64,000 nucleotides of DNA from a virus. Of the stretch, positions 8,080-38,956 are shown piece after piece (positions within the stretch are counted from its first letter, which is position 1; the number at the start of each line of letters is the position of its first letter). The stretch spans positions 28,981 to 92,980 of the IMG/VR virus record IMGVR_UViG_3300008113_000144. The stretch is one strand, 5' to 3'. Under the pieces are notes generated by a model, which did no database searches, was not told the DNA's origin, and was given only the letters and a program-made list of their open reading frames with translations. The position numbers and the translations under genes were made by a program.

Positions 8080-8244
8080 CTAGTGGCGGTCGGAGATGTT
8101 CCAGGTGGTGGTAGGAACGGGGGTGAGCTTACCAGCTCGGATCGCCTGCCGCTGCTCGTGCTCACGCTGGAGGGTCGCCATGTAGGCTGCCATCGCCATC
8201 TGGCAGGCGGGGTCGTTCTTGGCGAATTCGTTGGTGATGAACAT
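8080..8244 (-). CDS. Early hypothetical protein (54 aa)
   Basis: MFITNEFAKNDPACQMAMAAY...WNISDRH*; own TATAAT promoter at 8269-8274. Confidence 0.7.
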   Translation of the reverse strand: MFITNEFAKNDPACQMAMAAYMATLQREHEQRQAIRAGKLTPVPTTTWNISDRH

Positions 8245-8279
8245 GGGGTGTCGGTTGCTGACTCTGTAATTATAACGGG

Positions 8280-8456
8280 TCAGGGGAGCTGGCAGCTGCC
8301 AGGGAGGACACTGTTGTAAGTGTCACAGCGGCGCTCGGTGGCGGTGTTGACTGCCTGGACAGTATCGGCAGCGAACCCGATGGCTGCCCCACCCACGGTG
8401 GCGATGGGAGCGTAGAAGGCAGCACCGAGGGCGAGCAGGGCGATGGTCTTGAGCAT
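8280..8456 (-). CDS. Small membrane/secreted peptide (58 aa)
   Basis: MLKTIALLALGAAFYAPIATVGG...; own TATACT promoter at 8480-8485. Confidence 0.65.
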   Translation of the reverse strand: MLKTIALLALGAAFYAPIATVGGAAIGFAADTVQAVNTATERRCDTYNSVLPGSCQLP

Positions 8457-8523
8457 GGGTGGGGGTGTCGCTGGTGATCAGTATAGCATGGGGGAGGGCA
8501 CCGCTGTGGGTGCCCGTGGGTGC

Positions 8524-8778
8524 TCAGGGAGTAGGATCGAAACCGTCGAAGATTTCCTTTACAATGTCTTCGTGTGTTTGCTGGTTGAGTATACCAGAGA
8601 CGGCGATCTCTTCTGCCCATTCCCAATCCTCAGTGCCACCAGTGAGTACATCAAGGGGGAAGATGTGGGGGTGGATTGTGTTGAGAAGATCCTCGATCTT
8701 ACCCAGCTCAGTGTAGAGATCGGTGGGGATCTCCCATGCTTCGTCGATCTGAACCGTGTCGGTGAAAGCGTAGCTCAT
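8524..8778 (-). CDS. Acidic early hypothetical protein (84 aa)
   Basis: MSYAFTDTVQIDEAWEIP..., promoter 8803-8808. Confidence 0.7.
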   Translation of the reverse strand: MSYAFTDTVQIDEAWEIPTDLYTELGKIEDLLNTIHPHIFPLDVLTGGTEDWEWAEEIAVSGILNQQTHEDIVKEIFDGFDPTP

Positions 8779-8790
8779 GGGGTGTCTGTG

Positions 8791-9620
8791 GTTGACTTGA
8801 TCAGTATAGGGGGCAGGTGGGGGCATTGCTGCCCCCTGGTGGACAGTGCTCAGGCTGTCACAGCTTCACGAACTGTAACCTTCTGGATCTTACGGTTTGC
8901 CCTGGAAGCTTTGCCCCATTCGCTACCCTTAGGCTGTGTACCGTGTACCAGGAGAGCGAACGGACCATCCTCAAAACAGGAGCGATCCTTTACATCAACC
9001 TTGAAACCTGCTGCCTTAGCATGTGCTTCGGTCATGAACACTTTACTATAGCGAGGGAACACACCTTCGTCGATGAGATAATCGAACTTGCCACCATAGC
9101 TAGCGGTGAAGTAGAAATTATCGGGAAGGTTGAGACCAACAAACAGCGGCAGATTCTTGCTGTAGCAGTAGAACTTGATCGTAGGATTGTGGCGAGCAAC
9201 CAACAACCAAGCGAGCAAATACTCTGCTGTGAAGAAGTCACCAGACTCGTGGATTCTCACTTTAGTGATAGATTTAGTGAGATTCTTCTGGAGTTCTTTG
9301 TTGATGAGATCAGCACAGTTACCCTCTTTGAGAGCTTCACGGATCGCCTGAAGGTTACGCTGTCTTGCTTCGTATACTTTCGTATACTGTACTTCACTGC
9401 TAGCAGCAAAGCAGCGAAACTCAGTCTGAGGACCATCCCAAATCTTGCGTTTGCCGTTAGAATCAATCCGAACCATTGAGAGACACTGACTAGCACCAGG
9501 GCAGGTTGTACCTGCTGGCAGGTTGAAGATCAGGGTCTGTTTGTCGAGCTTGTCGTTGCCTTTGGAGAAGCTGAGCATGGCTCTGTCGTTGTTGACTTGA
9601 TCAGTATAGGGGGCAGGTGG
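8791..9620. repeat. 30-bp perfect direct repeat (8791-8820 and 9591-9620) flanking the GP88-like gene
   Basis: GTTGACTTGATCAGTATAGGGGGCAGGTGG twice, 800 bp apart. Confidence 0.95.
8850..9578 (-). CDS. GP88-family protein
   Basis: FNLPAG.TCPGA..C, CFAA, VRIHESGDFF, FYCYSK motifs. Confidence 0.75.
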   Translation of the reverse strand: MLSFSKGNDKLDKQTLIFNLPAGTTCPGASQCLSMVRIDSNGKRKIWDGPQTEFRCFAASSEVQYTKVYEARQRNLQAIREALKEGNCADLINKELQKNLTKSITKVRIHESGDFFTAEYLLAWLLVARHNPTIKFYCYSKNLPLFVGLNLPDNFYFTASYGGKFDYLIDEGVFPRYSKVFMTEAHAKAAGFKVDVKDRSCFEDGPFALLVHGTQPKGSEWGKASRANRKIQKVTVREAVTA

Positions 9621-9665
9621 TGCCCCCTGGTGGTGCTAGTGGACAGTGCCTGAAGTGGCACAGGG

Positions 9666-9860
9666 TCAGAAGTCTACAGCCCAGTCTGGGTCATTCTTTA
9701 CAGCAACCCAGAAAAAGTTCTTGCCATTGCTAGAGCGAAGAAACACACGGTTTTCTTTGATCTGCTCAACAATACACTCTGGGTTGCTGTTCATGAGGTT
9801 AGCGAATCTGTTCTTCGCTTTGTTAGACTTAGGAGTGACAAAAGCGAGGTCAAACATCAC
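9666..9860 (-). CDS. Early hypothetical protein
   Basis: 64 aa, VTPKSNKAKNRFANLM...FFWV...DPDW. Confidence 0.75.
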   Translation of the reverse strand: MMFDLAFVTPKSNKAKNRFANLMNSNPECIVEQIKENRVFLRSSNGKNFFWVAVKNDPDWAVDF

Positions 9861-10036
9861 AAAACGTAGATACCGTGGGTGTTAAACAGTGTGGGTTGAT
9901 TCTGTTGCCAACCCGTCATCATCTGCTGGAGTTGCTGTTCAGAATAGCGATTGAGGAAAGTATACTCAAACGTGGGTTGGCTATTCTGAACACGAAGCAT
10001 GTTCTGGATTGAGTTAATCAAACGTGAACGAAGCAT
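9857..10036 (-). CDS. Early hypothetical protein (59 aa)
   Basis: MLRSRLINSIQNM...; GTGA overlap with next gene; promoter 10059-10064. Confidence 0.65.
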   Translation of the reverse strand: MLRSRLINSIQNMLRVQNSQPTFEYTFLNRYSEQQLQQMMTGWQQNQPTLFNTHGIYVL

Positions 10037-10071
10037 TGTGTTTGTTTGAACTGATGTCAGTATGGCATCAC

Positions 10072-10383
10072 TCAGGCACGCTTGGGGGTGTTAGTGGACA
10101 GTTCAGAAAGTGTCACATCACATACCCAATAGTACAGCTTCTCTGTGCTAACACTAAGGAACAGCAGAAACTGTTTGGTATACTTTAGGAGGGTTTCTCG
10201 CCCACCATTGTTATACCAATCGCTGACACGGTTAGCAACCCAAACCGTGACGCCAACGATAACACCAGCGATCGTGGCGATGGTATAAAGAATCTGTTGG
10301 ATGGTCTCGTTGTTAGCAACCTCATCCATCAGTTCATTATACTTTTCGATGATGGGGTTGTTGAAAAGAATGGTGGCGTTCAT
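10072..10383 (-). CDS. Membrane protein
   Basis: Hydrophobic ILYTIATIAGVIVGVTVWV segment; start probably ATG 10383. Confidence 0.65.
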   Translation of the reverse strand: MNATILFNNPIIEKYNELMDEVANNETIQQILYTIATIAGVIVGVTVWVANRVSDWYNNGGRETLLKYTKQFLLFLSVSTEKLYYWVCDVTLSELSTNTPKRA

Positions 10384-10431
10384 TGTTGTAGAGAATTGAA
10401 CAGCAATGGTCGATCTCTCAACCACGAACAC

Positions 10432-10526
10432 ACCATAGCACCCCCAGCACCCCAGGTCAAGCGGTAGTGGACACTAGCCAAACTGGCACACACCCCCTTG
10501 ACAAACAATAAAATACCCCCTAGATT
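10432..10526. promoter_or_regulatory. Divergent sigma70 promoters sharing one palindromic box
   Basis: Minus: TTGACC(10460-10455)-17-TATGGT; plus: TTGACA(10498-10503)-17-TAGATT; box 10468-10489 between them. Confidence 0.65.
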
Positions 10527-10590
10527 ACATCTAGAGGGTTATATGTTAACAAATTACGATTTGTTTGACATATAATCTATATGTGTTAAC

Positions 10591-10719
10591 TTATTCTTGT
10601 GTAGTATAGTCTATATCTACTACTATACTATAGTCATCATACTCTAATTCTTTATTCTTTATATCTTCTTCTTTCATTTCTTGAATAATATATTCTTCAA
10701 ATGTTATTGTATTAGCCAT
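10591..10719 (-). CDS. Small acidic protein (42 aa)
   Basis: MANTITFEEYIIQEMKEEDIKNKELEYDDY... Confidence 0.45.
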   Translation of the reverse strand: MANTITFEEYIIQEMKEEDIKNKELEYDDYSIVVDIDYTTQE

Positions 10720-10755
10720 AAGAATAAAGATTAAAGTTTAATTATTATAGTTTAT

Positions 10756-10797
10756 AAAAAGTGAGAAATCCTATTTTTTAAGATTTCTCACTTTTTT
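10756..10797. terminator. Long inverted repeat, possible bidirectional terminator
   Basis: AAAAAGTGAGAAATC / GATTTCTCACTTTTT 15-bp arms with T runs on both strands. Confidence 0.6.
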
Positions 10798-10803
10798 AGA
10801 TTT

Positions 10804-10977
10804 TTAACTTTCTAGCAATTCAGGATAATGATCAGCCACCTCAGTCATCAATTCCTCTTCAGTGTAATCATTGAAGCATTGAACTAGCATGTCATAAGCA
10901 TACATTTCCAGCGTCTTCATGTCCATGTTCTCTAGGACTTGCTGGGCGTAGGCATCAATCAGTTCAGCTTTGTTCAT
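10804..10977 (-). CDS. Acidic early hypothetical protein
   Basis: MNKAELIDAYAQQVLENMDMKTL...YPELLES. Confidence 0.7.
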   Translation of the reverse strand: MNKAELIDAYAQQVLENMDMKTLEMYAYDMLVQCFNDYTEEELMTEVADHYPELLES

Positions 10978-11164: not shown

Positions 11165-11234
11165 GTGGATTTCTCAGGAACAAATTAAGAATAACATGGG
11201 TGGGGGCTGGTGTCAAGCCCCCTGTGACACTTAA

Positions 11235-11414
11235 TCAGATGGCACTGGTGCCCTTGCTCACCCACAGGGCAAGCCTCATGGTGCTAGCCTTGCTCACCTG
11301 CTCCTTAGTACGACCAGCTGCCATGGCGGCAGTCCGAAGGGCAGGGCGACCAGTATCAGTCTGGCTGGCGGTCAGCACGTTACGGGCGGCTTGGAGCAGT
11401 TGCTGTTGGGTCAT
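11235..11414 (-). CDS. Early hypothetical protein (SKAST-motif paralog 2, 59 aa)
   Basis: MTQQQLLQAAR...SKASTMRLALWVSK; promoter -10 at 11461-11466. Confidence 0.7.
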   Translation of the reverse strand: MTQQQLLQAARNVLTASQTDTGRPALRTAAMAAGRTKEQVSKASTMRLALWVSKGTSAI

Positions 11415-11565
11415 GATCCTCAGGGATAGTGTTTGCTCGGGGTGTTCCCCCGATGAACATAGTATGGCACCCACCAGAGCCCCCTACAAGCCCCTCTGTG
11501 CCACTTCTGAAACTGTCTAGGTGTCACACCACCAGGCACATGATCCTGTACGTTTACAAGGTAAT

Positions 11566-12150: not shown

Positions 12151-12446
12151 TGTACACAGTATAGGGCATCCTGCCAGTCTTGTCAAGGGGTCTGTGCCAG
12201 TCCCTGAACTGTCCTCGGAAGGTCTCGGAGCCCCTTGGATAGTCTTAGAGGTAGACTCATGATTTTGTCAAGCCCCTGTGTGCCACTTTGAGATCTGGCA
12301 CATTTCGACTTGACTTTCGGGTGCTGGCAGGCTTAGACAACAACACCTCCGTACATTTCTATGCTTTCAGCAACATTTAACGAAACCTTTTGTCAGAGAA
12401 TCAAAACACTCAACTATGTTTTTTTAAACATTTATTAATATACCAG

Positions 12447-12480
12447 TTTTCCACAGCTTTTTCCACAACCCTGTGGAAAA
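12447..12480. promoter_or_regulatory. Cluster of three cyanobacterial-type DnaA boxes (TTTTCCACA)
   Basis: 12447-12455 (+), 12459-12467 (+), 12472-12480 (-), intergenic, next to an AT-rich tract. Confidence 0.65.
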
Positions 12481-12544
12481 CTCAAAGGTATCGTTGAGAA
12501 CATCCTAGTCATAGACTACATTCTCTCAATGCGGAACTTCTTCC

Positions 12545-12748
12545 TCATTTCCTAAAACTCCTATGGATTTTAGCAAAGTCTATTCGTTTAGCAATCATCA
12601 TATCCATATGATTTAATACATCACCTATCAGTTCAGTCATACCAGAGATAGCATAGAATACATGCTTTAGTATAGGGATGATTAACAATGGTGTACATGG
12701 AATGAAGATAAGAAAACAAATAATTCTTCCTTTCAATGTATACTTCAT
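12545..12748 (-). CDS. Hypothetical membrane protein
   Basis: Hydrophobic N-terminus; ATGA overlap. Confidence 0.6.
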   Translation of the reverse strand: MKYTLKGRIICFLIFIPCTPLLIIPILKHVFYAISGMTELIGDVLNHMDMMIAKRIDFAKIHRSFRK

Positions 12749-12996
12749 TTGTTTACCATACGAATAGCATCATCAATCATTTCATATGCTTGTTCATTAA
12801 GATAATCATATGATTCAATTTGATCTAAAACTTTAGTTACAGTATCAATAGGTAGATACTGTTCTTCAAATGTTTCTTGGTCGAAGATTGTTACATCATT
12901 CTGTGTGTAGATGAAGGCAGCCACAGGAGCATCTGGTCCTTGTTCTTTAATCAGTTGTTGGATGGACTCTTGGAGTTGTTGAAGAGTTCGTGCCAT
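12745..12996 (-). CDS. Early hypothetical protein
   Basis: LIKEQGPDAPVAAFIYT; TATACT promoter 13019-13024. Confidence 0.75.
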   Translation of the reverse strand: MARTLQQLQESIQQLIKEQGPDAPVAAFIYTQNDVTIFDQETFEEQYLPIDTVTKVLDQIESYDYLNEQAYEMIDDAIRMVNK

Positions 12997-13073
12997 GTGG
13001 GTTGTTTGAACTGTTGATAGTATAGTGGCTGCTTGGTGTGGTGTGGTGGTAGTGTGTGACAGTTATTAAAGTG

Positions 13074-13574
13074 TCATACCTTTTGAGTAGAAATCAAATT
13101 AATACCATCTACAATATGATTATACATGAACTTGGTTTGTTCTATGCTCAAATCAACAATACTAAACTCAACACTATTATTAGTTGTAGAGATATTATAC
13201 TGACAAGGCTTAGTAACAAAATTAGTAATTTTAACTGTTTGTTTTGGTTTAGATTGGATTGTTTTCTCTTTGGTGAAGATCATTGGGAAATGTTGGCGAT
13301 AATCATCAAAAATGTCCATATCCATATGAAGATCAAATTTCTTTTTAACCTTTTCAGATATGGATTCAATATGCTTATTGTTTCTGATATATGGAAAATG
13401 ATACCTACAGTATTTCGCCATTCCCCTCAGTGTATTAATTTGATCTAATGGTTTATTTTTAGTGGTTAATTCATCTAGTGTGTCAGTAATGACATTCATC
13501 CACTTAGTATTAAAATCAACAATAAATTGTGGATAATTATTTTCAATTTGTATTTGCCAGCGACAGTTGCTCAT
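13074..13574 (-). CDS. Hypothetical protein
   Basis: 166-aa ORF; stop lies in box 13056-13077. Confidence 0.65.
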   Translation of the reverse strand: MSNCRWQIQIENNYPQFIVDFNTKWMNVITDTLDELTTKNKPLDQINTLRGMAKYCRYHFPYIRNNKHIESISEKVKKKFDLHMDMDIFDDYRQHFPMIFTKEKTIQSKPKQTVKITNFVTKPCQYNISTTNNSVEFSIVDLSIEQTKFMYNHIVDGINLISTQKV

Positions 13575-13610
13575 GATTTTTCAGCCTCATAATTTTGTTT
13601 AAGTTTACTT

Positions 13611-14180
13611 TCATTCAGATGTACCTATGTTAATATCAAAGACCACAACCCATCGTGGTGTAGGAATAGGTGTAGTCCAATGGAGAATCTTTCCTGGGAA
13701 GATCATTACATCACCTTCCTTACATTGAGTAGAAGAGACAATACCATCAAACAAAGGATAAGTATTCGATGAATTGTTTGTTGGTAGGAATTTTGTTGGG
13801 TTAGGCTCTTCAAGATGTAAGAGATAGATCCCTGTGAAATCTGATTGATAATGCCGATGAGGATTACAGATTTCATGGGGATCATAATAATTCCACCAAA
13901 TCGTTTTTACATTAGATCTGACCAGTTTAACCTTATTCAGGTTAGAATCAAATTCTTTGAGCATCTGGTTAAATGGATCCCAGATAGCATCCCGTACAAA
14001 CTCTTCATGAAACAATTCAAAATTCACCAGACCACTCGTAGTAATGCCTGTACCATTGATTTCACCACGATGAGCACGTTCTTTATCCTTTTCCAGTTTA
14101 GGAAGAAGAATACGCTTGTGCTCTTCGTGGTTGGGTACAGTTTGGTAAAAGAAAAACTCTGGTGTGAATGTGTGAATCAT
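13611..14180 (-). CDS. Putative 2OG-Fe(II) oxygenase
   Basis: WWNYY...PHRH..SDFTGIY...EGDVMIFP...HWT...RWVVVFDI; HxH...H triad typical of cyanophage 2OG oxygenases. Confidence 0.8.
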   Translation of the reverse strand: MIHTFTPEFFFYQTVPNHEEHKRILLPKLEKDKERAHRGEINGTGITTSGLVNFELFHEEFVRDAIWDPFNQMLKEFDSNLNKVKLVRSNVKTIWWNYYDPHEICNPHRHYQSDFTGIYLLHLEEPNPTKFLPTNNSSNTYPLFDGIVSSTQCKEGDVMIFPGKILHWTTPIPTPRWVVVFDINIGTSE

Positions 14181-14905: not shown

Positions 14906-14934
14906 AGTGTAGCAGATCAGTTGGTGAGTGTCAA
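14906..14934 (-). promoter_or_regulatory. sigma70-type promoter without box
   Basis: TTGACA-17-TACACT. Confidence 0.7.
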
Positions 14935-16728
14935 GGCTTTGGGCAGACCCACCAGGATGAGGAATGTGAGTAGAATCACCACATCCCAACACTTGTTCCG
15001 CACCATGTACGGAATCGCCAAGCCATTGGCTACCATATAAATCCTGGCACCTGTTACAGTGTCATGGTACATGGTAATCCAATAGGCTGTGACGACAAGA
15101 ATACTTGAGATTATTCTTGCTTTGACATCAGGTTTCATACTCTTTGATGATGATATTCTGTTGTGATGGAAACATTTCCTGTCCCGCCATTACAAAATCA
15201 ACAAATTTCTCTACCACGTCTAGACAAGTATCATAAGATTTTGACAACATTGGTCCAGAATACCACAGTTGAAGCAGCAAATCATCTTTACAATCAATCC
15301 AAATACCAAATCGTTTGATTTGAGCGTAATACCAATGTGTATTTGGATTACCGAGAATAGATGGACGACGTTGGATTCTCAATTTCATGGTGTTGTTTCC
15401 GATGCTTGTGGGGGCTCAGGAGGGGCAGGAGGTGCTGCTGGCGTGGGTGGCAGCTGAGTTGGCGTTGGTGCCTGTTGTGGGGGCAGCTGGAGGGGTGTAG
15501 CGAGCTTTTGTTCCAGCTTCTCCTCCAGTTGAGTTAATTTCTGCTCAATAGCAGGTGGTTTCTCCTCTGGTTTGTAGTCTGGTTGTTGTTGTGCTAGTTT
15601 CCAGCCAGCAGCACCAGCACCAAAGATGCTAGCCAGTGCTGCTACAGTTGAAATGGTTGATTGAAACTTACTCATTTGTTGTCAATGATGGCTTTCAGTT
15701 CATAGATGGCGTTGCTCACAGTCGCCTCAAGATAACCATAACAATAGGGATAACCATGCTCATTTTGAATGGCAGGGTTCTTTGTCACTTTAAGAGCATC
15801 CTCAAGACCTTCCAGAATGCTTTCCAGGTGCCAGGTGGTAACTTTGGTGGTGCTCATGATGTGATGTGTGAACTGAGATCAGTCTACGCTGATCAGGTCT
15901 TCTAGCAAGTCTTCTGGGACAGTCTCGTAACTGTCCTCAAGATAAATGTCTTCGGCATTTCGTAGGATATTCTGCCGAACAGTGTAATCATCGTAGTAGT
16001 ATTCAGTTGTGTCAAAGTCAGAAAAGTAAGTCATGATTCGTGTGAATGATTACCGTTTACAAGTTCAAGTTCGTTTTGTTGATTGGGATAGACTAGCATA
16101 CAGACATCCCGCCTTGGATCATCAGGAAAGTGTCGGACACATACAGTTATATACGACTCACAAGCAAATCGTACATGACCATACATGCCTCTATAATACA
16201 CTTCTGTTCCTTCTGGCAGCATACTCGTACTCGGTGATTGGTTCGTGGTGGACACTGATTGATTCATAGTCAGGGTACATAACAGAAACAATGTATTGAG
16301 CCAAGTTATGATTAGCTGCCACTACATACACGTCAGCAGTAATTGAGCTTGGTGCTTCTTCGGGGGCATCTTGCCAAGGTAATTCTACCTCAACAAGATA
16401 TACATGCCCGTGTTTTAAACTGTTGTCGAAATCAACGATCAAATCAGACATCATACTCTTTATTCAATTCAGATGTGAGTTCAAAACGTAGTTCATCAAT
16501 CTCTTCACGAAGAAATTTTATTTCTTGTTGTAAATGAATGATTTCGCCTTGTTGGGTTTTGACAAGCTCAGCGTATTCTTTTACGAGAGCTTCTGCCTGT
16601 TCTAGACTGGTCATGTTACTTTTTAGAAGACAAATGGTATTTATTGTAGTCTAAACTACCGAGTTTTTGCTCTTGGAGTAGTGTATATTGCCCAACAACA
16701 AGAGCAATCATGGCAATAATGATTGGTT

Positions 16729-17610: not shown

Positions 17611-17668
17611 ATTATGGCACGACCACAGGTGCCTGTCAAGGGCAGTGTGCCAGTTTCAGGACAGTAAC
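17611..17668 (-). promoter_or_regulatory. Early promoter with upstream box
   Basis: Box 17647-17668, TTGACA-17-CATAAT. Confidence 0.8.
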
Positions 17669-19401
17669 AGGTGAGGTGCCGAATCGAACGCTGCTCGTGG
17701 TACACCTTTTACTTCTGCTGTGATGGCACTCTTAATTGTAGTTAAATTATTGTCATAATCAAAAATCTTATATCCTTTCTTACTAATTACTCCGTAAATA
17801 GTCAAGAACATTCTTTGTTTTAAGTAGGTTTGGAAACTCTTACCACCAATGAAAGCAAACCATGCTAACTGAGCATGAACATAGTGTGCCTCAATTCTAG
17901 CATCAGTTTCTTGTGAAGTTGCTGGTCTTGTAATTTGTATCTTATCTTTATCTTTCGCTGTTTTCTTATTTGGATTTGGTATCATGTCTTTCATAGTAAA
18001 ACTAGCATACCTATCCGAAATCTTAATAGATGGGCTTACTTGTTTTCTCACTAGATTAATAAGAGCAACTTGATATGCCGTAGCAGTATTAACTCTGCCA
18101 GTTTCTTCATCAAATGCTTTGAAGAAATCCATTAAGTTTTTGGATTGTTTAACTGTGGATAGAATCTTCTTAGTTAAAAGATCTTGTGTTGCTTTCCTAT
18201 GTAGATTCTTCAATTTTGTTGAAAAACTACGTGTATCAATTGAACCAGAGGTCTCCTTACCAGTTAAAACATAATTAAATGCTTTTGCCCTCATGTGTAC
18301 TAATTTTTGTATCACAGTTGAGTATTCTCTATACTGCTCGTAGAAATGTTCAAATGTAGACACACCACCGCCACCAGTCCAAGGTGGTCCTTGATGACCC
18401 TCAGCAACAAATCCATTCCATCCAGCACCATAACCTTGAGCAAGGAATATGATTTTATAATTCATATCGCTGAGTGGTTCTATATCTCTACCAAATACTT
18501 TTTGTGCTGCTACTCTATATCTAAATGTAACTGGCAGTTCCCATGTTAATACAGATGGCGATACTTTAAATTGACCATATTCAATCTTAATCAAATTTTC
18601 AATTAATGATTTTAATTGTCCTGGGTTAGCAGTATATGCTAAAGTCATGAACTTAGTATATGGGTCAATATAATCAGAAACTTCTTTTCTTACATTTTGT
18701 GTACCAATGATGTTAATATATTTCTTCTGTTCTACTGTTCCTGGTAATTTTAATGATACGGCAACCAATGATCTAGTATTTGACTTGGAAGCAAAATGAC
18801 GATTTAAAATAGTTCTATATGTGTGGCGATTCAAACAATAATTTGAAAGTATTGTAGCATCATCAGCATTAACAATATGTTGATTAATTTCAGATAATAT
18901 CTGCTGTTTTTTCTGTTTGTGTACAATGAATACATCAAAACTTGCTAACATATCAAGTCTAAATGTTAGCCCAAACACTTGTTTAATTTTATTCAATGCT
19001 TCATCTTTTACCGTGGTGGTAAATTTATCTGTTTGATCTAAAAACTCATATACTTCCCAATTTTGACCAACCACTTTTGAATTATACAGACTCAATGCCA
19101 CATCATATACTTTTTGTATTGTTGTGTGAGCAGTGATAGTATCTTTCTTTGGATTGTATTTTGATTTGAAATCATTTATTGTTCTTCTAAAAGGAAATCC
19201 ATTACCTAAATGATTTCTATATTTAATTAATCGTGGTCTTTCTACGCCAGACTCTTGTTGATCTTTTGCCGAAAGAAAGATGTCATAAAATGCTTGTTTA
19301 TGTTGTTCTGCTTCATTAGTATTATAAGGAATCACAGCAAAATGAGCAAATGCTAAACACTGAGCGAACTCTTTAGTATTTCCCGTGTTTCCTTTTGCCA
19401 T
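17656..19401 (-). CDS. 581-aa protein, possible PD-(D/E)xK-like nuclease
   Basis: N-terminal KEFAQC, SFDVFIV and LVAVSLK spacing resembles E...D...SxK nuclease variants; CTAAATA late motif at 19419-19425. Confidence 0.45.
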   Translation of the reverse strand: MAKGNTGNTKEFAQCLAFAHFAVIPYNTNEAEQHKQAFYDIFLSAKDQQESGVERPRLIKYRNHLGNGFPFRRTINDFKSKYNPKKDTITAHTTIQKVYDVALSLYNSKVVGQNWEVYEFLDQTDKFTTTVKDEALNKIKQVFGLTFRLDMLASFDVFIVHKQKKQQILSEINQHIVNADDATILSNYCLNRHTYRTILNRHFASKSNTRSLVAVSLKLPGTVEQKKYINIIGTQNVRKEVSDYIDPYTKFMTLAYTANPGQLKSLIENLIKIEYGQFKVSPSVLTWELPVTFRYRVAAQKVFGRDIEPLSDMNYKIIFLAQGYGAGWNGFVAEGHQGPPWTGGGGVSTFEHFYEQYREYSTVIQKLVHMRAKAFNYVLTGKETSGSIDTRSFSTKLKNLHRKATQDLLTKKILSTVKQSKNLMDFFKAFDEETGRVNTATAYQVALINLVRKQVSPSIKISDRYASFTMKDMIPNPNKKTAKDKDKIQITRPATSQETDARIEAHYVHAQLAWFAFIGGKSFQTYLKQRMFLTIYGVISKKGYKIFDYDNNLTTIKSAITAEVKGVPRAAFDSAPHLLLS

Positions 19402-19736
19402 GAGAATAGTTTTTTAACTATTTAGATTTACGTTTTGGTTTCTTCTGTTTTTCTCTATGTTTCTTCAACGCTTCGATGGCTTCCTCATCAGTCTTGTGAT
19501 CACTGAGTTGAAAGCCATTATATATCAAAACAAAACGGTCCCCCCAGGGGACCGTAGCATATCCATCTTTGGTTATCATTTTAGATGTTCTCTACAATAT
19601 ACAAATCTATTCCATTCTTCATCACTGAAATTATCACTGGCATAAGGAATGCCAACCACATAAGCACAAAACCGATTAATTTGTTCTGATTTATCCATGG
19701 GGGTAGCAGCAATCACAGATGCCATTAGAATTTCAA

Positions 19737-20144
19737 TCATTTGTTCATTTGGAGAGTAGGGACGGGCATTCCACCTTCGGTGGGCACATAGATGGTCACA
19801 TTACCATTCTTGCTACCATCTTCAAGACCAGTAATGTACAGGTATTGGAGATACTCACGGTTGTCCTTCAGGCTATCACCGATGATTTGGTTTGCCTTGG
19901 CAACACCAGTAGCACGGATGATCTCAGCATCAGCAAGTTGTTGTGCCGAATCTTTTTTTGCCTGTGCTTCCAGCACAGCCACCTGTCGGGTGTATTCTGC
20001 TTTCTGAAGCTCTGCTTTACCAGCAAGAGATTGCTGCCACACATTGTATTGTGGACCACCAATGAAGATGAGACCACCAAGCACAATCACACCACCAATA
20101 ACAAAAACAGCAACAGGGTCAATATATCCATTTTGTTGTTTCAT
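19737..20144 (-). CDS. Membrane-anchored stomatin/prohibitin-related protein
   Basis: TM segment then PQYNVWQQSLAGKAEL...AEIIRATGVAKANQIIGDSL...IYVPTE. Confidence 0.7.
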   Translation of the reverse strand: MKQQNGYIDPVAVFVIGGVIVLGGLIFIGGPQYNVWQQSLAGKAELQKAEYTRQVAVLEAQAKKDSAQQLADAEIIRATGVAKANQIIGDSLKDNREYLQYLYITGLEDGSKNGNVTIYVPTEGGMPVPTLQMNK

Positions 20145-20220
20145 TTTTTTACCTCTTTGTAAATTTTCATAGCAAGGTCCATTACACAATAGCCAAAGGC
20201 AAATCCTGCCATAATTTCAA

Positions 20221-20496: not shown

Positions 20497-20912
20497 CAGA
20501 AAGGAATTTCCTCCAGGGTGGGCACAGCAGACATTGTAGCACAGGCAGGATGCTCTTCAGTCACGGTGTCACCAGTGATAACATCAAGAATGTTCAGAAT
20601 CTCTTGACCGTTGGCACCCTTACGGAGCATGGAAATCAGAAGTTGCTTGCTCATGGTAATAAAATGATAAGGTTTACAGAATCACTCTTCAGGGAAGAGT
20701 TTCCAGATGTCAGGGCGAATGCCCAATTCCTCACAACGAACCTCATAGGCGATTCGCTGGAGGAGGCGAAGGTCCATGCCCTCGACCTCCTTGATTATAG
20801 CACGACGGATCTGGGCGTCTTGGGCAGTGTCAGTAACCATTGTGGTTCCGTTGTTGACTCACTCATTATAGGGGTGGAACCACCCCGTTGTGGGGTGGTC
20901 TTGTGTCAGTTG

Positions 20913-21377
20913 TCAGGCTGTCACAACCTCGGGCATCGGCAGCTCGTGGGTGTTGCCACTACCCCAGCCGATCCTGTAGGCTCGCCACTTGCCTTCGGTG
21001 GTGTACAGGTAAGCAAACTCCTCGCCAGTGTTGCCACTGGTGAACTCTTCAAAGTCACCGTGAGTGATCTCCAGTTCTTCGCCACGCTCAGTGTGGTAGA
21101 GGGGCTGGGGAGCACGAGTGGGAGAATACACCCAGTTGCCGTCCATGTCACGAGCGATGTCTCCATCCTCAGTACGAACCACAGACGTGATCCACAGATG
21201 GGTGGTCCGAAGCGAAGACATGCTACCGCCGTCGATCAGCTGACGGACAGCTTCACGATCTTGGTAGTGCTCAGCAAGAATACGACCGTTGTGCTCCAGG
21301 TAGCCATCATAGTGGCAGTAAACACTGATAATGCTGTTGTCAGGCAGTTGGTAGCCGATCCGAGAGCGAGTGCCCAT
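20913..21377 (-). CDS. Conserved phage hypothetical protein
   Basis: MGTRSRIG...SVYCHYDGY..HNG..L...EEFAYLY; start 21377 follows promoter. Confidence 0.8.
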   Translation of the reverse strand: MGTRSRIGYQLPDNSIISVYCHYDGYLEHNGRILAEHYQDREAVRQLIDGGSMSSLRTTHLWITSVVRTEDGDIARDMDGNWVYSPTRAPQPLYHTERGEELEITHGDFEEFTSGNTGEEFAYLYTTEGKWRAYRIGWGSGNTHELPMPEVVTA

Positions 21378-21402
21378 GTGGTCCTCCGTTGTTGACCCTC
21401 TT

Positions 21403-28385: not shown

Positions 28386-28585
28386 TTAAAAGCACCACCA
28401 ATGATAGCAAAAATCAGAATAACAGCAACAATAGCAAGAAAAATTAGAGCACTAATCCACAAAGGAGACAGCACCCACACCCAAGGCCAAGTGATGTTAC
28501 CAGTGAGTTTCAGACCAATAAACAAAATGGTAAGCAAACCAGTGAAACCAATGCCACTGGAAGAGGAAGAAGAGTTGCTAGACAT
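28382..28585 (-). CDS. Small membrane protein
   Basis: SSSSGIGFTGLLTILFIGLKLTG.ITWPWVWVLSPLWI; start 28585 after promoter. Confidence 0.8.
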   Translation of the reverse strand: MSSNSSSSSSGIGFTGLLTILFIGLKLTGNITWPWVWVLSPLWISALIFLAIVAVILIFAIIGGAFK

Positions 28586-28607
28586 GTGTTTTATTTGAAC
28601 TGAAGTC

Positions 28608-28665
28608 AGTATAGACCATAAAAAAGGGGGCGTCAACCCCCCTGTGTCGGTTTCAGAACTGTCCT
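28608..28665 (-). promoter_or_regulatory. Box + terminator hairpin with -35 + -10
   Basis: Box 28644-28665; GGGGGG-TTGACG-CCCCC-T6; TTGACG-17-TATACT. Confidence 0.85.
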
Positions 28666-29123
28666 TTACCCTGCCCCACATCAAATACCCAGATGCCACG
28701 CTGAACCCACATGTTTACAACACGCTGGCGATCATCAAAGACACCCAGAATCATGTGAGTTTTGAGGATTTCATCAGCAATCTCGCCTTTGACGACGGCA
28801 TCATCACGATGATCTTTATACTTTCTCATATACAGACCATCCCATTTGAAACCAAAGGCAGTCAACCACTCTTCTGTTTGCTCACGATAGTCGTCTGATC
28901 GACCAGATACAAAGAACAAATCACAATCCATGGTTCCTTTGCTAGCATGTAGTGCTTTATACACATAATCTACTGCTAGATGAGGAACATCTTGTCCCAA
29001 TCCTTTGTTCCAAGCATCCCAATTACGGGGTTTAGTTGCTACGTATTGACGACGATGGCGAACATCACAGATGGTGCCATCGAGATCGAAAACGAAGCAC
29101 TTCTTTCGTACCACATTCGACAT
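28653..29123 (-). CDS. HAD-family polynucleotide 3'-phosphatase (PseT C-terminal domain)
   Basis: FDLDGT, VSGR, MR..KD.R.D.VVK, FDDR..VV.MW...G. Confidence 0.9.
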   Translation of the reverse strand: MSNVVRKKCFVFDLDGTICDVRHRRQYVATKPRNWDAWNKGLGQDVPHLAVDYVYKALHASKGTMDCDLFFVSGRSDDYREQTEEWLTAFGFKWDGLYMRKYKDHRDDAVVKGEIADEILKTHMILGVFDDRQRVVNMWVQRGIWVFDVGQGKGQF

Positions 29124-29574
29124 AATCAAATCCTTCTGCTACAGTTGGTTTTTCAAATTGATGATACATTCTTTTCAGAATGTCTTTAGGAATAAACTTA
29201 CCGTCACGATGATTGTTTCGTTCCAGTGCTTCCTCTAGAGTAATTTCAAAGTAAATTGCTCCTCTATGATAGTATGATGGCAGTTTATTCAGTTTTTTCT
29301 TTCGTGCTTTGGCACTAAGATTGGTCTGATCCCAGATAATATCTTTACCATTGTCGATGGCATATGGGATCAGTTTCTCCATCATCCATGTTGCTTCTTT
29401 GATATACTTATCGAACACTTCATTATACGTTTTGCCCTCTTTTTTGGCATAGTAATCAATGTAGTAGTCCGTCGAGAGAACCACAGAATTTTTCCAATAA
29501 TCCAGAGCAAGAAGTTTATCCACATAGGTAGATTTCCCGCTGGTGGGGATACCACAAAGCATTACACATTCCAT
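29065..29574 (-). CDS. Polynucleotide kinase-like P-loop protein
   Basis: GIPTSGKST Walker A, STD, WDQTNL, ERN..R. Confidence 0.85.
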   Translation of the reverse strand: MECVMLCGIPTSGKSTYVDKLLALDYWKNSVVLSTDYYIDYYAKKEGKTYNEVFDKYIKEATWMMEKLIPYAIDNGKDIIWDQTNLSAKARKKKLNKLPSYYHRGAIYFEITLEEALERNNHRDGKFIPKDILKRMYHQFEKPTVAEGFDYVECGTKEVLRFRSRWHHL

Positions 29575-30731: not shown

Positions 30732-30752
30732 GATTTTGTTTGAATTGTTGAT

Positions 30753-30781
30753 AGTATAAAACCCCTCAACACAATTGTCAA
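30753..30781 (-). promoter_or_regulatory. sigma70-type promoter of RNA-repair operon
   Basis: TTGACA-17-TATACT. Confidence 0.8.
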
Positions 30782-30798
30782 GGGGTCATTGATAAGTG

Positions 30799-31206
30799 TT
30801 ACGGATAGTGAGCAAGGATTTCAACAGTATATTTTATCTGTCCGCCAAACCCAGTAAATGTTGGGTCAACTTCTGCTTTAATTTCTGTTATAACTCCCTT
30901 TCCTCTTGCTACATCTTCCATAACTTTATGGAATTGCTGTTCGATATTTGTTTGATATGGGATAGCAACATTTCTGTGATATGTTCCTATCGTTGAACAT
31001 GTTATTCCATTAGAAACGAGAAGATTATTTGGATGAACATAATTACCAGTTAAAGTAATTCCTGTGTTTGTTAGTTGTGCTGTAGGAATTACAAACTGAT
31101 CTTGTTCTTCTTCAACTTTTTCGGTAGTTTCTTCTATTACTTCTTCTATAGATTCTGGTTTTTCGCCATAAACTTCTTCAAATTTATCAAGTAGTGGGTT
31201 GCTCAT
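30799..31206 (-). CDS. Hypothetical protein
   Basis: ORF with acidic N-terminus. Confidence 0.65.
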   Translation of the reverse strand: MSNPLLDKFEEVYGEKPESIEEVIEETTEKVEEEQDQFVIPTAQLTNTGITLTGNYVHPNNLLVSNGITCSTIGTYHRNVAIPYQTNIEQQFHKVMEDVARGKGVITEIKAEVDPTFTGFGGQIKYTVEILAHYP

Positions 31207-31546
31207 AATCATCGTCCCATGGTGCTTTATGACTTAATACTCTAGCAATACTTTCATTAAATTGTGGTGGTTCGTTAAGTTTTTCCACAAGATTATCAAA
31301 ATCTTCTTTCGATAATGTAATACGTTCTGGCGGATAAGATCCTTTCCCCCAGAACTCTTCAAACCTATGAACGTAATTCATATGATCCCAACCATGATTG
31401 AGATTCAACCAAAAATCAGCATATCGTTGGTGATCATCCATTCTCCAATAATCATGATTAATAAGACGATACCAATACCAGAAAATTGTATACTTAATCG
31501 GACTAAATCCGATTATCCACTTGTTTAGCCACACTGGAAAGTTCAT
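31187..31546 (-). CDS. Trp-rich protein with C-terminal DUF1778-like segment
   Basis: ITLSKEDFDNLVEKLNEPPQFNESIARVL. Confidence 0.55.
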   Translation of the reverse strand: MNFPVWLNKWIIGFSPIKYTIFWYWYRLINHDYWRMDDHQRYADFWLNLNHGWDHMNYVHRFEEFWGKGSYPPERITLSKEDFDNLVEKLNEPPQFNESIARVLSHKAPWDDDYEQPTT

Positions 31547-34500: not shown

Positions 34501-34785
34501 ATCATACTCCTCCAATTCATTCAAAAGTTCCTTGGTGGTTGCCAATGAATTAAGGAGTTTTATCACTTTTAAATGTGTCATTAGTCAGACGCTCTCCAAC
34601 TTCTTGCTAGTGGTGAGGACTGATACTCTTCAACTGCTTGGAGAATCATGTGAGCAGATTCTAAAGCATCTGCTTCATCCCAGCCATCATCTTGCTGCCC
34701 ACTAATATAATAAGCATACAGATGATCTTTAATCACGTCCATCAGTCGGTCATACTTGGTCATGAGATCGGTTTGAACTACAGTC

Positions 34786-34814
34786 AGTATAGGGGCTCAG
34801 GCGTCGTCTGTCAA
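34786..34814 (-). promoter_or_regulatory. sigma70-type promoter without box
   Basis: TTGACA-17-TATACT. Confidence 0.75.
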
Positions 34815-35496
34815 GCGGTCTGTGTTGATCTTAAGATCTTTTTCCAGTTGCCTGGTCATCCTCTCAACACGCCACTTGAGAGTCCAGCGTGGGATTGGGT
34901 TGATAGGGTGAAACCTGACAATCCACCATGCTCTCTTGAGTTGAACTCCAGCATAGCGAACCATCAGGTCAATGAATATAGCTACATTTTTATCTACTAC
35001 CATCATATAAGCAATGATAGCAAAAATAGCAAATATTAGGTAGTAGTAAGTCATGTTATCTATTATAGAAACGCCTATCGAATTTATCTTTCATCAAAGA
35101 TGATATATTTTCAAATCTTAACTGACACACATTTATCCATGATTGAATGTCTGAAAGATACTGATTAATGTCAGCAGAATTATCAATATACCATTGATTA
35201 GATTCTTGAATATCAAAATATGATATATTATTTTTCGTAAATATTAGATTTAGTTCTGAAGTATAGTATATTTTACGATAACGATAATCAATAAATTGGG
35301 TAAAGTTATCAATTAAAATACCTGTTTCTACTGCCAATCTCAACCCCGTTAAATGATTAACAATAGCAGTACAATTGGTCTCAACTATTTTATCATAACC
35401 AGTATAGTTATACCCATTAATAGCAGATTCTAAATCTCGGGAAAATCTTTCTAATTTTTGTAATCCTTCTATTAGGGTCATCGTGGTCTTTTTTTA

Positions 35497-35655: not shown

Positions 35656-35846
35656 GTTGTTCCCAGTCTCCCCGTTCTTTTTTACGGAGACTCTTAAGTT
35701 CTTTATAAAGTTTTTTAATTTCTTGATAAGCATCTTCAGGACTCATTTTGTCGGCAATTTCAAGACCAGCGATTAAACCTACTTTATCGCCAAAGCGAGC
35801 TAGTGCTCGTTCAAATTCTGTTAAGCTTTCGTACATAGGCAACCTG

Positions 35847-36686
35847 TCAGTTCATAAACGATTCTAGCACACTTTTGGGTTTTGGCTTTGGATGTTCTGG
35901 TTTCTTAACAATGATCAGCTCAGTCTTGTCATACCTCTTGGTTCCTGACATTTGATATGGAAATGTGAGATACCTAAATTCAGTCCACCCTTCATACAAG
36001 TTACGAACACTTTCGCTGTTGTCATAAGACATCACAAAGCCACCACGATGAGACTTTAGAATCCTAGCAAATTCTTCGTGATCAAATGTTTTGTGTAGCT
36101 CGCCATCCTTTCCATAATAATGACTCACAGTTTCGTAATATGGCGGATCAAGGTACATGAAATCATCTACATGCTTAGGAATAGTGTCGAAACAACTACC
36201 GTAGCTGAAGCTGAAGTTAGGATTGTAGAATTTCCTGAGCTTTTCAATGCCAACAAGACGAAACTCAGCACGAGAACGTACAGTAGAACAACCGATCTTG
36301 CCGCTGTAAGACCCTTTAATAGCAATATAAAATGCCCAAGCACGAGTAAACTTATCCTCGTGATCGAGCAGTGGCAAGAAAGATTTGTAGTGGTCACTAT
36401 CTTTTAATGGATAGTGCTTGGAAACCTCAGCAGCAATACGATCGCCGCCCTCGGTAGTCAGAATTTCCCAGAAATCAGCAAGAGAACGGAAAATATCGTA
36501 TGCTTGTACCTTGATTCCTTGGGACGCTAAAAGCATTTCTACAGAACCACCACCAAGGAAAGGAGAAACAACATAATCTACACCAGGATAAACATCCTTG
36601 ATGATGTCAATAATTTCATTCTTCATCCTGTTCTTGCCACCAGCGTAGCGATACAGGGAATGGTTGGTCACTTTAGATGGGGCCAT
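35847..36686 (-). CDS. DNA adenine methyltransferase (Dam/D12 class)
   Basis: RYAGGK, SPFLGGGSV, YLDPPY, MSYD motifs. Confidence 0.92.
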   Translation of the reverse strand: MAPSKVTNHSLYRYAGGKNRMKNEIIDIIKDVYPGVDYVVSPFLGGGSVEMLLASQGIKVQAYDIFRSLADFWEILTTEGGDRIAAEVSKHYPLKDSDHYKSFLPLLDHEDKFTRAWAFYIAIKGSYSGKIGCSTVRSRAEFRLVGIEKLRKFYNPNFSFSYGSCFDTIPKHVDDFMYLDPPYYETVSHYYGKDGELHKTFDHEEFARILKSHRGGFVMSYDNSESVRNLYEGWTEFRYLTFPYQMSGTKRYDKTELIIVKKPEHPKPKPKSVLESFMN

Positions 36687-37654
36687 GAATAGTTGTTCCG
36701 AACGATACTGTTGTAAAACTTTTCCCTATTATAACCTGGATTGATGTGGTTTGACAACTCAATGATCTCCATGTTAAACAGGGCGTAGTCCTCACGCTGG
36801 ATTTGACCGTTGAGGTAGTTGCTCCTAAACAGTCTAGCACACTGGTAGATGTCCCGTGCTAGGTCAGGATCACCGAACAAGTGCTCGGCAGCAATCGTGT
36901 TGAGGATGTCCACATAGTTGCCCTGGGTGCCGCCAGCCCGCTTGATACCAGAAGTCTTGAGGATACGAAACTCACTCAGCGAAGACATACCAATGTTACG
37001 CCACACATACTTGTCGTATTTGGTGGTGGTACGAGTGAGCCAATACTGACACAGTTCATGCTCGCTCATCGAAAGAATCTCAGCTTTCATCTTATGATTA
37101 CGCTTCACAGCGTCCTTCATAGATTTATACCAGATGTTGTATTCCATTTCGCCCATTTCATAGCGACGCTCACAGCGTTCTATAAAGTTCTTAGCAGACT
37201 GCTTTTTGTTTTCGTTAATGTTAGCGAGAACAAGCACAATATTCTCTGGACGATCCCCAGCAGTAGGATCAATATGCTCTACCTGGAAATCTAGAATGTG
37301 GTACGGACCATCGCCACTGTAGGCACAGCAACGGTCCTGATTCAAATACATCTGTGTGATCATGATGCCCCTGGCTTCTGTAGGATTAGCACCAGGAGCA
37401 CCGATAGTATCGGTAGCGGGATCGTAGTATCCAGCCAGAAGTTGCTGTCCAGACTTACGAATATCTGTCTGCTCTTCTTTAGTGAAGGTGGCATATGCTT
37501 GAGCAGCAGACTCCCAAGAAAAATCATTGATCTTTGCTTGAGCAATAATAGCTTCAGCATGACCAGTAATAAGATCTTTACGAGCGATCACACCTTCAAG
37601 TTGTTTGAAGGTGAGTAGCTGATCCTTGTAATCAATTGAACGTTTGAGAGTCAT
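36668..37654 (-). CDS. HNH-domain protein, putative endonuclease
   Basis: CAYSG...QVEHIDP...ENIVLV..NINENK. Confidence 0.7.
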   Translation of the reverse strand: MTLKRSIDYKDQLLTFKQLEGVIARKDLITGHAEAIIAQAKINDFSWESAAQAYATFTKEEQTDIRKSGQQLLAGYYDPATDTIGAPGANPTEARGIMITQMYLNQDRCCAYSGDGPYHILDFQVEHIDPTAGDRPENIVLVLANINENKKQSAKNFIERCERRYEMGEMEYNIWYKSMKDAVKRNHKMKAEILSMSEHELCQYWLTRTTTKYDKYVWRNIGMSSLSEFRILKTSGIKRAGGTQGNYVDILNTIAAEHLFGDPDLARDIYQCARLFRSNYLNGQIQREDYALFNMEIIELSNHINPGYNREKFYNSIVRNNYSWPHLK

Positions 37655-38877
37655 CGTACATCAATGGCGGGTTGACCTTTAACAAAAATGGTGTCTACGA
37701 CTTCTTCCAGACGACGCTGGGTTTTCTTGCCGTAGTTCTTGAAGACAGGCACAGTCACGAAACCAGTGGACTTTCGGTACATGGCGAAGTTTCCTGCCTC
37801 AATCTTACCACAGGCAACGTCACGGGCGTCATCCTTGTTAAGACGGATAACACGACCGATGGTTTGTGCCATTTCCACAATTGGCAGGTTACGAAGCAGA
37901 ATGGTATGAGTCAGACCGTGAACGTTGATGCCTTCAGACAAAATGCTGTAGTGGAAGATGATGAACTTACGCTCAGGATCTTGACCCCAAGCGTTGAAGG
38001 TGTCGAAGAATGTCTCACGATCGACTTTAGTTTGATTCACATAAGCACCGAACTTGCTGGTAATATGGAGAACATCAAAACCACGCTCAGCGAGCTGTGT
38101 CAGGACTTTGGTGCTAGACAGCATCTGCCACAATACTTTGCTGCTAGGAGCAGCCACAAGCACCTTCTGGGCGTTCCTAGCGTCCAGTCCGTCGATCATG
38201 TCGATGAGGGTGCTAGCGTCGTTGTCAGCAGCACTGAGACCCTTCTGGCGTTCATAATCTACTTCATGAACTTGAATAGTTGGAGGAAGAATATTGCCTT
38301 GCTCAACAAGCTCAGGAGCAGAAATGTTAGAGATAATCTGACCAAACACAATCTTGTTGTTCATGCCAGTGCCAAGCGAAGAACGACGATGCTTGGGGGT
38401 AGCAGTGAAGTAATAGTAATTGGTAGCATTACACTCAGCAACGGAACTGAAGAAATCAGTACGAGTAGCGTTGTGTGCTTCGTCGTAATAAGCCACATCA
38501 ATATTGATTTCAGACTCGTTCACACGACGAAGAGAGTTGTACGTCGTAAAGATCAGCTTATGATTATCTACAATCTCATCCCAAGCAGCAATCACATCAG
38601 GCTTGGTAGTGCTCTTGTGGTGGCTTTCGCCACTGTGAACATGAAGAACGTTAGCAAAATCAATGTGCTCAAGAAACTCACTGGACAGTTGCTCTGCCAG
38701 GAGAATACGTGGAGCACACACAACAATGGTCAATGGTCTGCTAGATTCGTTCATCCGACGAATAGCATCAAAAATCATGATGAGAGTCTTGCCAGCTCCA
38801 GTCGGAGCGATGATCTGCCCAAACTGGTGCTTTTTGAGAGCGGCAAGACTCTGCTCTTGTTGGGGGCGGAGTTTCAT
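37651..38877 (-). CDS. Superfamily II DExH helicase (ResIII-like)
   Basis: LRPQQ, PTGAGKT, DEAH, TATP, SEGINV, QTIGRVIR. Confidence 0.9.
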   Translation of the reverse strand: MKLRPQQEQSLAALKKHQFGQIIAPTGAGKTLIMIFDAIRRMNESSRPLTIVVCAPRILLAEQLSSEFLEHIDFANVLHVHSGESHHKSTTKPDVIAAWDEIVDNHKLIFTTYNSLRRVNESEINIDVAYYDEAHNATRTDFFSSVAECNATNYYYFTATPKHRRSSLGTGMNNKIVFGQIISNISAPELVEQGNILPPTIQVHEVDYERQKGLSAADNDASTLIDMIDGLDARNAQKVLVAAPSSKVLWQMLSSTKVLTQLAERGFDVLHITSKFGAYVNQTKVDRETFFDTFNAWGQDPERKFIIFHYSILSEGINVHGLTHTILLRNLPIVEMAQTIGRVIRLNKDDARDVACGKIEAGNFAMYRKSTGFVTVPVFKNYGKKTQRRLEEVVDTIFVKGQPAIDVR

Positions 38878-38899
38878 GGCAAATCAGGTCAATAAAGAT

Positions 38900-38956
38900 A
38901 GTATGTCACAAAAAAAGGGGCTCGTCAAGCCCCTGTGCCACTTACTGAACTGGCGG
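38900..38956 (-). promoter_or_regulatory. Box + terminator/-35 hairpin + -10 at the late/early boundary
   Basis: Box 38935-38956; GGGGCT-TGACG-AGCCCC-T7; TTGACG-17-CATACT. Confidence 0.85.

Follow-up and report, generated by a model that had tools for sequence, protein, structure and literature searches.

The window analysed here, a whole stretch of 64,000 nucleotides (nt) at the 3' end of a 92,980-bp viral contig (G000; IMG/VR record IMGVR_UViG_3300008113_000144, positions 28,981 to 92,980), comes from a freshwater T4-like cyanomyovirus and carries 17 copies of a 24-bp dyad, referred to below as the box, in nine of which an upstream gene ends. The explanation that most probably holds for these gene ends is an ordinary one: they would mark an overlap of regulatory and coding sequence in a compact genome, the boxes being part of cassettes that resemble the promoter early stem-loops (PeSLs) of T4-type phages and carry an operator of the host type. 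The first-pass annotation of this DNA had seen in the box a junction at which gene modules are joined, and had named genome compaction as an alternative. It is the alternative that explains the data better, as shown by two control units, one box-less and one with only a remnant box, whose upstream open reading frames (ORFs) stop at 30799 and 34797, and by the read-through of boxes across the phage family. From the junction proposal a conserved regulatory linker between genes can be kept, together with three boxes that do coincide with junctions, whereas borrowed stops, preferred breakpoints and an integron site have to be given up. The unsupported idea of an integron-like system in a lytic cyanophage is thus removed, and its place is taken by an ordinary mechanism in which the same bases would serve both as operator half-site and as the C-terminus of a protein.

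The box and the gene ends within it

The box reads TGTG[AC]CA[GC]TT-N4-AA[CG]TG[GT]CACA. A matrix of 167 non-redundant oriented sites, collected from at least 74 IMG/VR loci of freshwater and marine cyanomyoviruses and including the isolate S-CRM01, is a perfect 10-4-10 dyad, and not the pair of 7-nt arms around an 8-bp core proposed earlier. The dyad scan of the entire 92,980-bp contig gave 16 sites scoring 16-18 out of 18 and one scoring 15, all of them within positions 8059-38957 of the window; the rest of the contig contains no further site scoring at least 16. The variable centre is 4 nt long, and the spacers, like the central hexamers, are all different in the 17 copies. In the 167-site matrix the arm positions 1/24, 3/22, 5/20 and 8/17 vary independently, their pairing being that expected under independence, which argues for a pair of protein-binding half-sites on duplex DNA. 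A hairpin formed by the box itself, in RNA or DNA, was considered and ruled out because the arms show no covariation. One box of S-CRM01 (HQ615693, 125862-125891, or 6863-6892 of locus L104, with the core at 125868-125885) is annotated as a Rho-independent terminator; this label is probably wrong, since boxes are not hairpins by the covariation test.

The nine in-box stops listed in the first-pass annotation were all found again, and so were the two genes that read through a box (ORFs 8280-8456 and 10072-10431). The counts differ slightly: there are 17 boxes, not 16, and the ORF ending at 9666 stops 3 nt, not 5 nt, from its box. The VTA* ending common to two unrelated proteins does come from the box sequence, GTGACAGCCTGA occurring exactly twice, at 8850 and 20913. 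The boxes of the window and the two control units are listed below by their plus-strand coordinates, with box positions 1-24 numbered along the minus strand, which is the gene strand.

8059-8082, minus strand: box; ORF 8080-8244 ends in it with TAG at positions 1-3; -35 TCGACA, and -10 TATAAT 28 nt on.
8304-8327, minus strand: box; ORF 8280-8456 reads through, its stop lying directly ahead of the -10; no -35 match.
8839-8862, minus strand: box; GP88-like gene 8850-9578 ends ...VTA*, TGA at positions 11-13.
9639-9662, minus strand: box; ORF 9666-9860 stops 3 nt before it.
10094-10117, minus strand: box; ORF 10072-10431 reads through.
10467-10490, minus strand: box; -35 TTGACC; no clear upstream gene end.
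11223-11246, minus strand: box; ORF 11235-11474 ends in it with TGA at positions 10-12, followed by a GC hairpin with TTGACA in the loop.
11497-11520, minus strand: weaker box (score 15); no clear upstream end.
12193-12216, minus strand: box, followed by TTGACA-17-TATACT; the second box of a tandem in non-coding DNA.
12279-12302, minus strand: box; no clear promoter after it; nearest upstream stop 243 nt off.
13055-13078, minus strand: box; ORF 13074-13574 ends in it with TGA at positions 3-5.
15915-15938, minus strand: box; the first gene behind its promoter is 15672-15857.
17646-17669, minus strand: box; the gene for a 581-residue protein, 17656-19401, ends in it with TGA at positions 12-14; promoter TTGACA-17-CATAAT.
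20902-20925, minus strand: box; gene 20913-21377 ends ...VTA*, TGA at positions 11-13.
21438-21461, minus strand: box; ORF 21457-21618 ends in it with TGA at positions 3-5, within the half-site TGTGACA.
21438-21420, minus strand: terminator-like hairpin with TTGACG in the loop, followed by a T run and -10 TATATT.
28643-28666, minus strand: box; gene 28653-29129 ends ...GQF*, TGA at positions 12-14.
38934-38957, minus strand: box; ORF 38942-39322 ends in it with TAA at positions 14-16.
30752-30799, minus strand: control, a box-less promoter and hairpin unit; the stop of ORF 30799-31212 abuts a hairpin carrying TTGACA.
34785-34824, minus strand: control, a promoter with a remnant box only; ORF 34797-35054 stops between -35 and -10.

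Across the family 163 boxes were assessed for the nearest upstream ORF of at least 60 codons; it ends within the box in 48 of them, at positions 0, 1, 3, 10, 11, 12, 14 and 18 only, and reads on into the hairpin or the promoter in 42. Counted over the ORFs that reach a box, 48/90 (53%) stop inside it, against 23% for a random frame (binomial p 4e-10). The independent, human-curated annotation of S-CRM01 shows the same pattern: the coding sequences g160, g185 and g187 end in boxes, and two more end at most 4 nt before one. In-box stops are general in this phage family and go beyond chance.

It had been proposed that incoming genes borrow their stop codon from the box. The orthologues of three box-terminated genes contradict this, as they keep their last residue where the box is absent or shifted. 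The family of gene 28653 closes with ...G-x-G-[QDN]-F*, the last residue being the same where a box overlaps the stop and in nine box-less loci; in the latter the ending is ...GDF* and the next gene begins at TGATG or TAATG. Copies with a box differ mainly by a change of GAT to CAG that creates GGACAGTT. The GP88-like family (8850-9578) has the same last residue whether the box lies over the stop, 12-15 nt downstream of it (loci L113 and L128) or is absent (L112). In the family of gene 20913 the TGA lies at the centre of the box for 10 of 12 loci, and the last residue is unchanged in L092 and L097, where the proximal half-site and the promoter are missing; in both a half-box relic remains at the gene end and the next gene starts right after the TGA. 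Since orthologues keep the same end without a box, the stops are the genes' own. A sense-strand TGA as an intrinsic box feature, hinted at by S-CRM01 spacers such as GTTGAAAGAC, was also ruled out: the 57 boxes in which no ORF ends contain 42 sense and 51 antisense stop triplets, a balance that speaks against any stop built into the box.

Such gene ends would be expected in a genome with no spare bases, where the upstream frame extends to its limit and tends to close directly ahead of the hairpin that often follows the box. The degenerate positions of the box (1-3, 5 and the spacer, 10-14) could hold a stop together with the last two or three codons, and an operator half-site would in this way be overprinted on the gene's own C-terminus. 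Overprinting of this kind would lead unrelated proteins to converge on VTA* or VTV* endings.

The promoter unit and its host counterpart

In gene direction the unit consists of the end of the upstream gene, the box, often a GC hairpin with a TTGAC loop, a -10 element, a short conserved leader and the ATG. A consensus match to a -10 hexamer lies 28-31 nt after the box in 16 of the 17 copies. The -35 hexamer is less regular, with a match of at least 5/6 in nine boxes and of at most 3/6 in seven, and the consensus scan supports promoters at 17639, 12186, 8052, 21431 and 11216 as well as the terminator-like hairpin 21438-21420. The boxes with the poor -35 match (8304, 8839, 9639, 10094, 11497, 13055 and 20902) have a good -10 at a fixed distance, as do the Cyano-1 promoters of the host. 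Seven of 17 promoters without a -35 indicate an activator-type site, and these seven may depend entirely on a factor that binds the box; the nine others carry TTGAC in a hairpin loop. Two classes of leader are found between the -10 and the ATG: one with ...GTCAAC[AC]AC... (8776-8802, 9576-9602, 20838-20865 and 21375-21400) and one with ...CAGTTCAAAC... (10034-10060, 12994-13020, 28583-28610 and 34761-34790); no obvious Shine-Dalgarno sequence is present in either class.

An adjoining stem-loop is clear at 21438, 28643, 38934, 11223 and 8839. Of the 167 sites in the family, 41 have a perfect hairpin after the box and about 12 a T run. Perfect hairpins accompany 21 of 48 in-box stops and 8 of 42 cases of read-through (p 0.014), a pairing that fits a frame forced to end before the hairpin, although it accounts for the in-box stops only in part. 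The same pairing might be taken to mean that the stop is placed in the box for a function of its own, for example a ribosome parked about 11 nt from the hairpin tuning termination or read-through, or clearing the operator. The excess of in-box stops over random-frame closure (53% against 23%) and the 10-12 nt that spacer stops leave to the foot of the hairpin would suit such a function. However, the stops are spread over six permitted positions instead of occupying one, a quarter of the ORFs read through while others end well upstream, and box-less orthologues end at the same residue; the proposal has very little probability.

A search for the exact box consensus in 185,579 prokaryote genomes returned many matches from cyanobacteria and, less expectedly, from Acidobacteriota. 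Among 13 cyanobacterial loci, seven have a gene for a Cyano-1 small RNA (sRNA; RF01701, Yfr2-type) that begins 38-40 nt beyond the end of the box, and the spacing from box to -10 is the same as in the phage. The host genomes with an exact box before Cyano-1 genes belong to Nostocales, Microcystaceae and Synechococcales. The presence of the same dyad at the same distance before host sRNA genes identifies the box as a promoter operator of host type. T4-like cyanophages reportedly have a promoter element of their early genes, described by Doron and colleagues in work on Syn9; conserved ahead of host-like early promoters in cyanomyoviruses, it is in this respect similar to the box.

In Prochlorococcus (MED4) a palindromic element upstream of yfr2 is bound by PMM1637, a GntR-type homologue of PlmA, according to Lambrecht et al. 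(2018, PMC6191309). PlmA or PMM1637 may, by analogy, bind the phage box as well. The element, CGRE1, resembles the box in being a palindrome of ~22-24 bp that keeps a constant position ahead of the transcription start (PMC6191309), while the phage copies differ from the host element in being fused to strong -35/-10 hexamers and hairpins and in overlapping coding sequence. The link to the Cyano-1/Yfr2 promoters names a candidate host regulator for phage early genes, and a by-product of the analysis is the 167-site promoter-operator matrix for freshwater and marine cyanomyoviruses, S-CRM01 among them. It is also worth mentioning that the exact 24-nt consensus is very common in Acidobacteriota, in Terracidiphilus, Pyrinomonadaceae and Bryobacterales (loci L151-L230), which suggests that a regulator of these bacteria, related or unrelated, might use the same operator.

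The box is accordingly best pictured, subject to the points weighed below, as follows. It would be a double-stranded DNA operator for a dimeric regulator, located at about -65 to -42 of host-type (sigma-70-like) promoters, and would copy the element that cyanobacteria place upstream of their Cyano-1/Yfr2 sRNA genes. The promoters so equipped would head small accessory or early-type genes of a T4-like cyanomyovirus. Together with the GC hairpin (often with the -35, sometimes with a T run), the -10 and the leader, the box would make up a cassette of the PeSL kind that combines terminator and promoter.

PeSL cassettes, and the recombination that they undergo, are documented for the T4-type phages RB49/phi1, PST/T4 and nt-1/KVP40 (Arbiol et al. 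2010, PMC2839356; Comeau et al. 2014, PMC4122927), whereas the marine cyanophage S-PM2 has few PeSLs (Puxty et al. 2015, PMC4503421). In RB49 the recombination rates are low, about 1e-5. Like PeSLs, the box units combine a predicted sigma-70-like promoter, a short leader and, in some copies, a stem-loop between small non-essential genes, are clustered in a hyperplastic region of a T4-like genome, and occur in a phage with homologous recombination genes of its own; some replacements and indels between relatives also end inside the unit. The box units differ from PeSLs in the additional 24-bp dyad operator upstream, in a -35 that is often in the hairpin loop or missing, in the rarity of T runs and in synteny breaks that are not above those of ordinary gene borders.

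Gene borders, crossovers and recombinases

The inverted arms had also been compared to the geometry of tyrosine-recombinase sites, and the gene ends to those of integron cassettes. The likeness to attC/attI arrays lies in the repeated imperfect inverted repeats at gene ends, all in one orientation, with stops and some homology breaks inside and a variable centre between the arms. Site-specific exchange of the lox/FRT/att type requires identical overlap regions, and the core sites of lox, FRT, att and dif have an identical overlap of 6-8 bp; the centre of the box is 4 nt long and different in 17 of 17 copies. The attC sites are recognised as folded strands, unlike the box, whose arms vary independently. 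Profile searches with PF00589 (Phage_integrase, of tyrosine recombinases) and PF00239 (Resolvase, of serine recombinases) found neither domain in the contig, in its relatives G001 (98% complete) and G004 or in the complete genome of S-CRM01, while the positive controls scored in 14/14 and 12/14 genomes; the earlier remark that no recombinase is visible in the window agrees with this. G001, G004 and S-CRM01 each have a RecA/UvsX-type gene. Unlike integron cassettes, the phage units have neither an integrase nor a common promoter, each carrying its own promoter at a fixed distance, and the same site precedes host sRNA genes. Site-specific recombination is largely refuted by these data, and there is hardly any chance that the box is the core site of a tyrosine recombinase at which cassettes are captured in an integron-like manner.

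The expectation that synteny between relatives breaks at the boxes was checked against four relatives of 73-91% nucleotide identity, G001, G002, G005 and G004 (IMGVR_UViG_3300047557_001530), every border between the 85 genes of the window being scored by protein-level adjacency. Borders with a box were broken in 8 of 36 comparisons and box-less ones in 68 of 182; borders ever broken were 5/15 with a box and 38/66 without, a trend opposite to enrichment. The five consecutive boxes of the densest stretch, 8247-10861, are collinear in G001 and G002. Many indels fall on ordinary borders between genes; they include ORF 14917-15138, 1.7 kb inserted near 16650, further insertions (20495 and 23232) and the gene of the halogenase (23376-24774). 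This is a first quantitative test of the question in cyanophages, and their PeSL-like units are not enriched for synteny breaks.

Several points weigh against the regulatory/coding overlap favoured here. A T run is found in only about 10% of the hairpins, so a terminator function is not general, and a hairpin is rare (2/20) where an ORF ends just before the box, which leaves the enrichment of in-box stops only partly explained by the hairpin constraint. Promoter, terminator and 'early' status are predictions from consensus and position only. Going by its published description (PMC6191309), the host element CGRE1, with its GTTG...CAAC flanks, may differ from the box in the arrangement of half-sites. 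Finally, homology to a relative ends inside three of the 17 boxes (13055, 20902 and 38934), and some crossover role of the boxes may have to be allowed for.

At the first of these three, ORF 13074-13574 is missing in G001, in G005 and in one metagenome contig, the homology ending at 13064, box position 15, in the spacer. At 20902 an allele of 40% identity in G002 and G005 lies between flanks of 78-79% nucleotide identity; homology resumes in the box, and the allele ends at the same TGA with its own, different distal half-site, both half-sites being valid. At 38934, G004 carries a different upstream gene that ends with TGA at box positions 1-3. These homology ends fit an occasional homologous exchange of the PeSL type. 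At a fourth place, 15915, gene 15672-15857 is missing in G005 and the junction lies between -35 and -10, outside the box. The apparent replacement of ORF 8080-8244 in G001 was set aside as a cassette swap, the gene being a diverged orthologue that shares the last eight codons.

A more far-reaching view of the same data would make the cassettes, box included, preferred crossover points of non-allelic homologous recombination, with PeSL shuffling and mini-circles, the box centre being the cassette boundary and each gene carrying the distal half-box. Besides the three junctions, the half-box relics at the gene ends in L092 and L097 and the experimental demonstration of PeSL recombination in RB49/phi1 (PMC2839356) are in its favour. 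So is an all-against-all BLAST of 142 box-centred segments of 1.2 kb, in which homology ends cluster at the box edge and at the leader/ATG, left homology ending at box positions -30 to +9 in 21 cases against about 1 per 10-nt bin elsewhere. This pile-up is, however, expected in any case, given the likeness among all cassettes and the gene border at this point, and does not locate a crossover. Box borders break no more often than others (8/36 against 68/182 comparisons, 5/15 against 38/66 borders), the five boxes at 8247-10861 stay collinear, most indels are at box-less borders, and orthologues keep the same stop without a box. The metagenome joints that lead from unit to unit (8274>8780, 11185>12188 and 8797>11471) have only 21-30 nt on one side, are expected from repeats and likely artefacts of them, and were counted neither way; the robust joints, 12343>13613 with a 255-nt side and 8571>8693, are not box-to-box. 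A preferential role in crossover is on balance unlikely. Somewhat less likely still is a specific form of cassette movement in which accessory genes travel without a recombinase, bounded by the centre of a host-derived operator, the distal half-site supplying the last codons and the stop and UvsX-type crossovers rebuilding the promoter. If true, such operator-centre cassettes would link gene shuffling to the hijacking of a host stress regulator, the PlmA/Yfr2 circuit. Under the overlap of regulatory and coding sequence, the cassettes would occasionally act as short-homology linkers for the phage's own homologous recombination, as a side effect and with no dedicated site-specific system, and the boxes would not be preferred seams of gene gain or loss.

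Source phage and variable genes

The assignment of the source to the freshwater T4-like cyanomyoviruses agrees with features held in common with close uncultured relatives and with the isolate S-CRM01 (Kyanoviridae). Near-identical DNA occurs, as assembled contigs, in twenty freshwater, lake or river metagenome runs from 11 studies. A megablast comparison of 17-25 kb of the window with isolated phages returned only two short common pieces, in the Synechococcus phages S-SZBM1 and S-CREM1. Nearly all genes between 7 and 40 kb of the window are small and on the minus strand. The larger genes of the window recognised by Pfam encode two RNA ligases, a Dam-type methylase, an SF2 helicase and a tryptophan halogenase; Pfam gave no match for the 581-residue protein (17656-19401) nor for three other large ORFs.

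The stretch 19507-20173 (ORF 19737-20189) has a contig depth 10-30x that of the adjoining DNA in all four metagenomes, and matches part of S-SZBM1 at 86% identity, close to a gene labelled there as a membrane protease subunit. To judge by these matches, it appears to be a gene common to many co-occurring phages. The region 12344-13612 is replaced by 126 other letters in the well-supported metagenome contig X3, with sides of 255 nt, and is not alignable in G001, G002 and G005; together with its non-coding part 12344-12544, between the box at 12279 and ORF 12545-12748, it represents a variable insert and not a conserved feature of the lineage.

In the stretch 23356-24774, the gene 23376-24774 belongs to the tryptophan-halogenase family (Pfam E 2.6e-73) and is found in G001 at 93% amino acid identity, but is cleanly missing from this position in both G002 and G005. 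A halogenase copy of 26% identity lies within the 1.7-kb insertion that G002 has near window position 16650. In G004, if the contig ends adjoin, as expected for a circularly permuted genome, about 3 kb would correspond to about 17 kb of the window (9.6-26.8 kb), which would mean a very large difference in the size of the accessory region between relatives.

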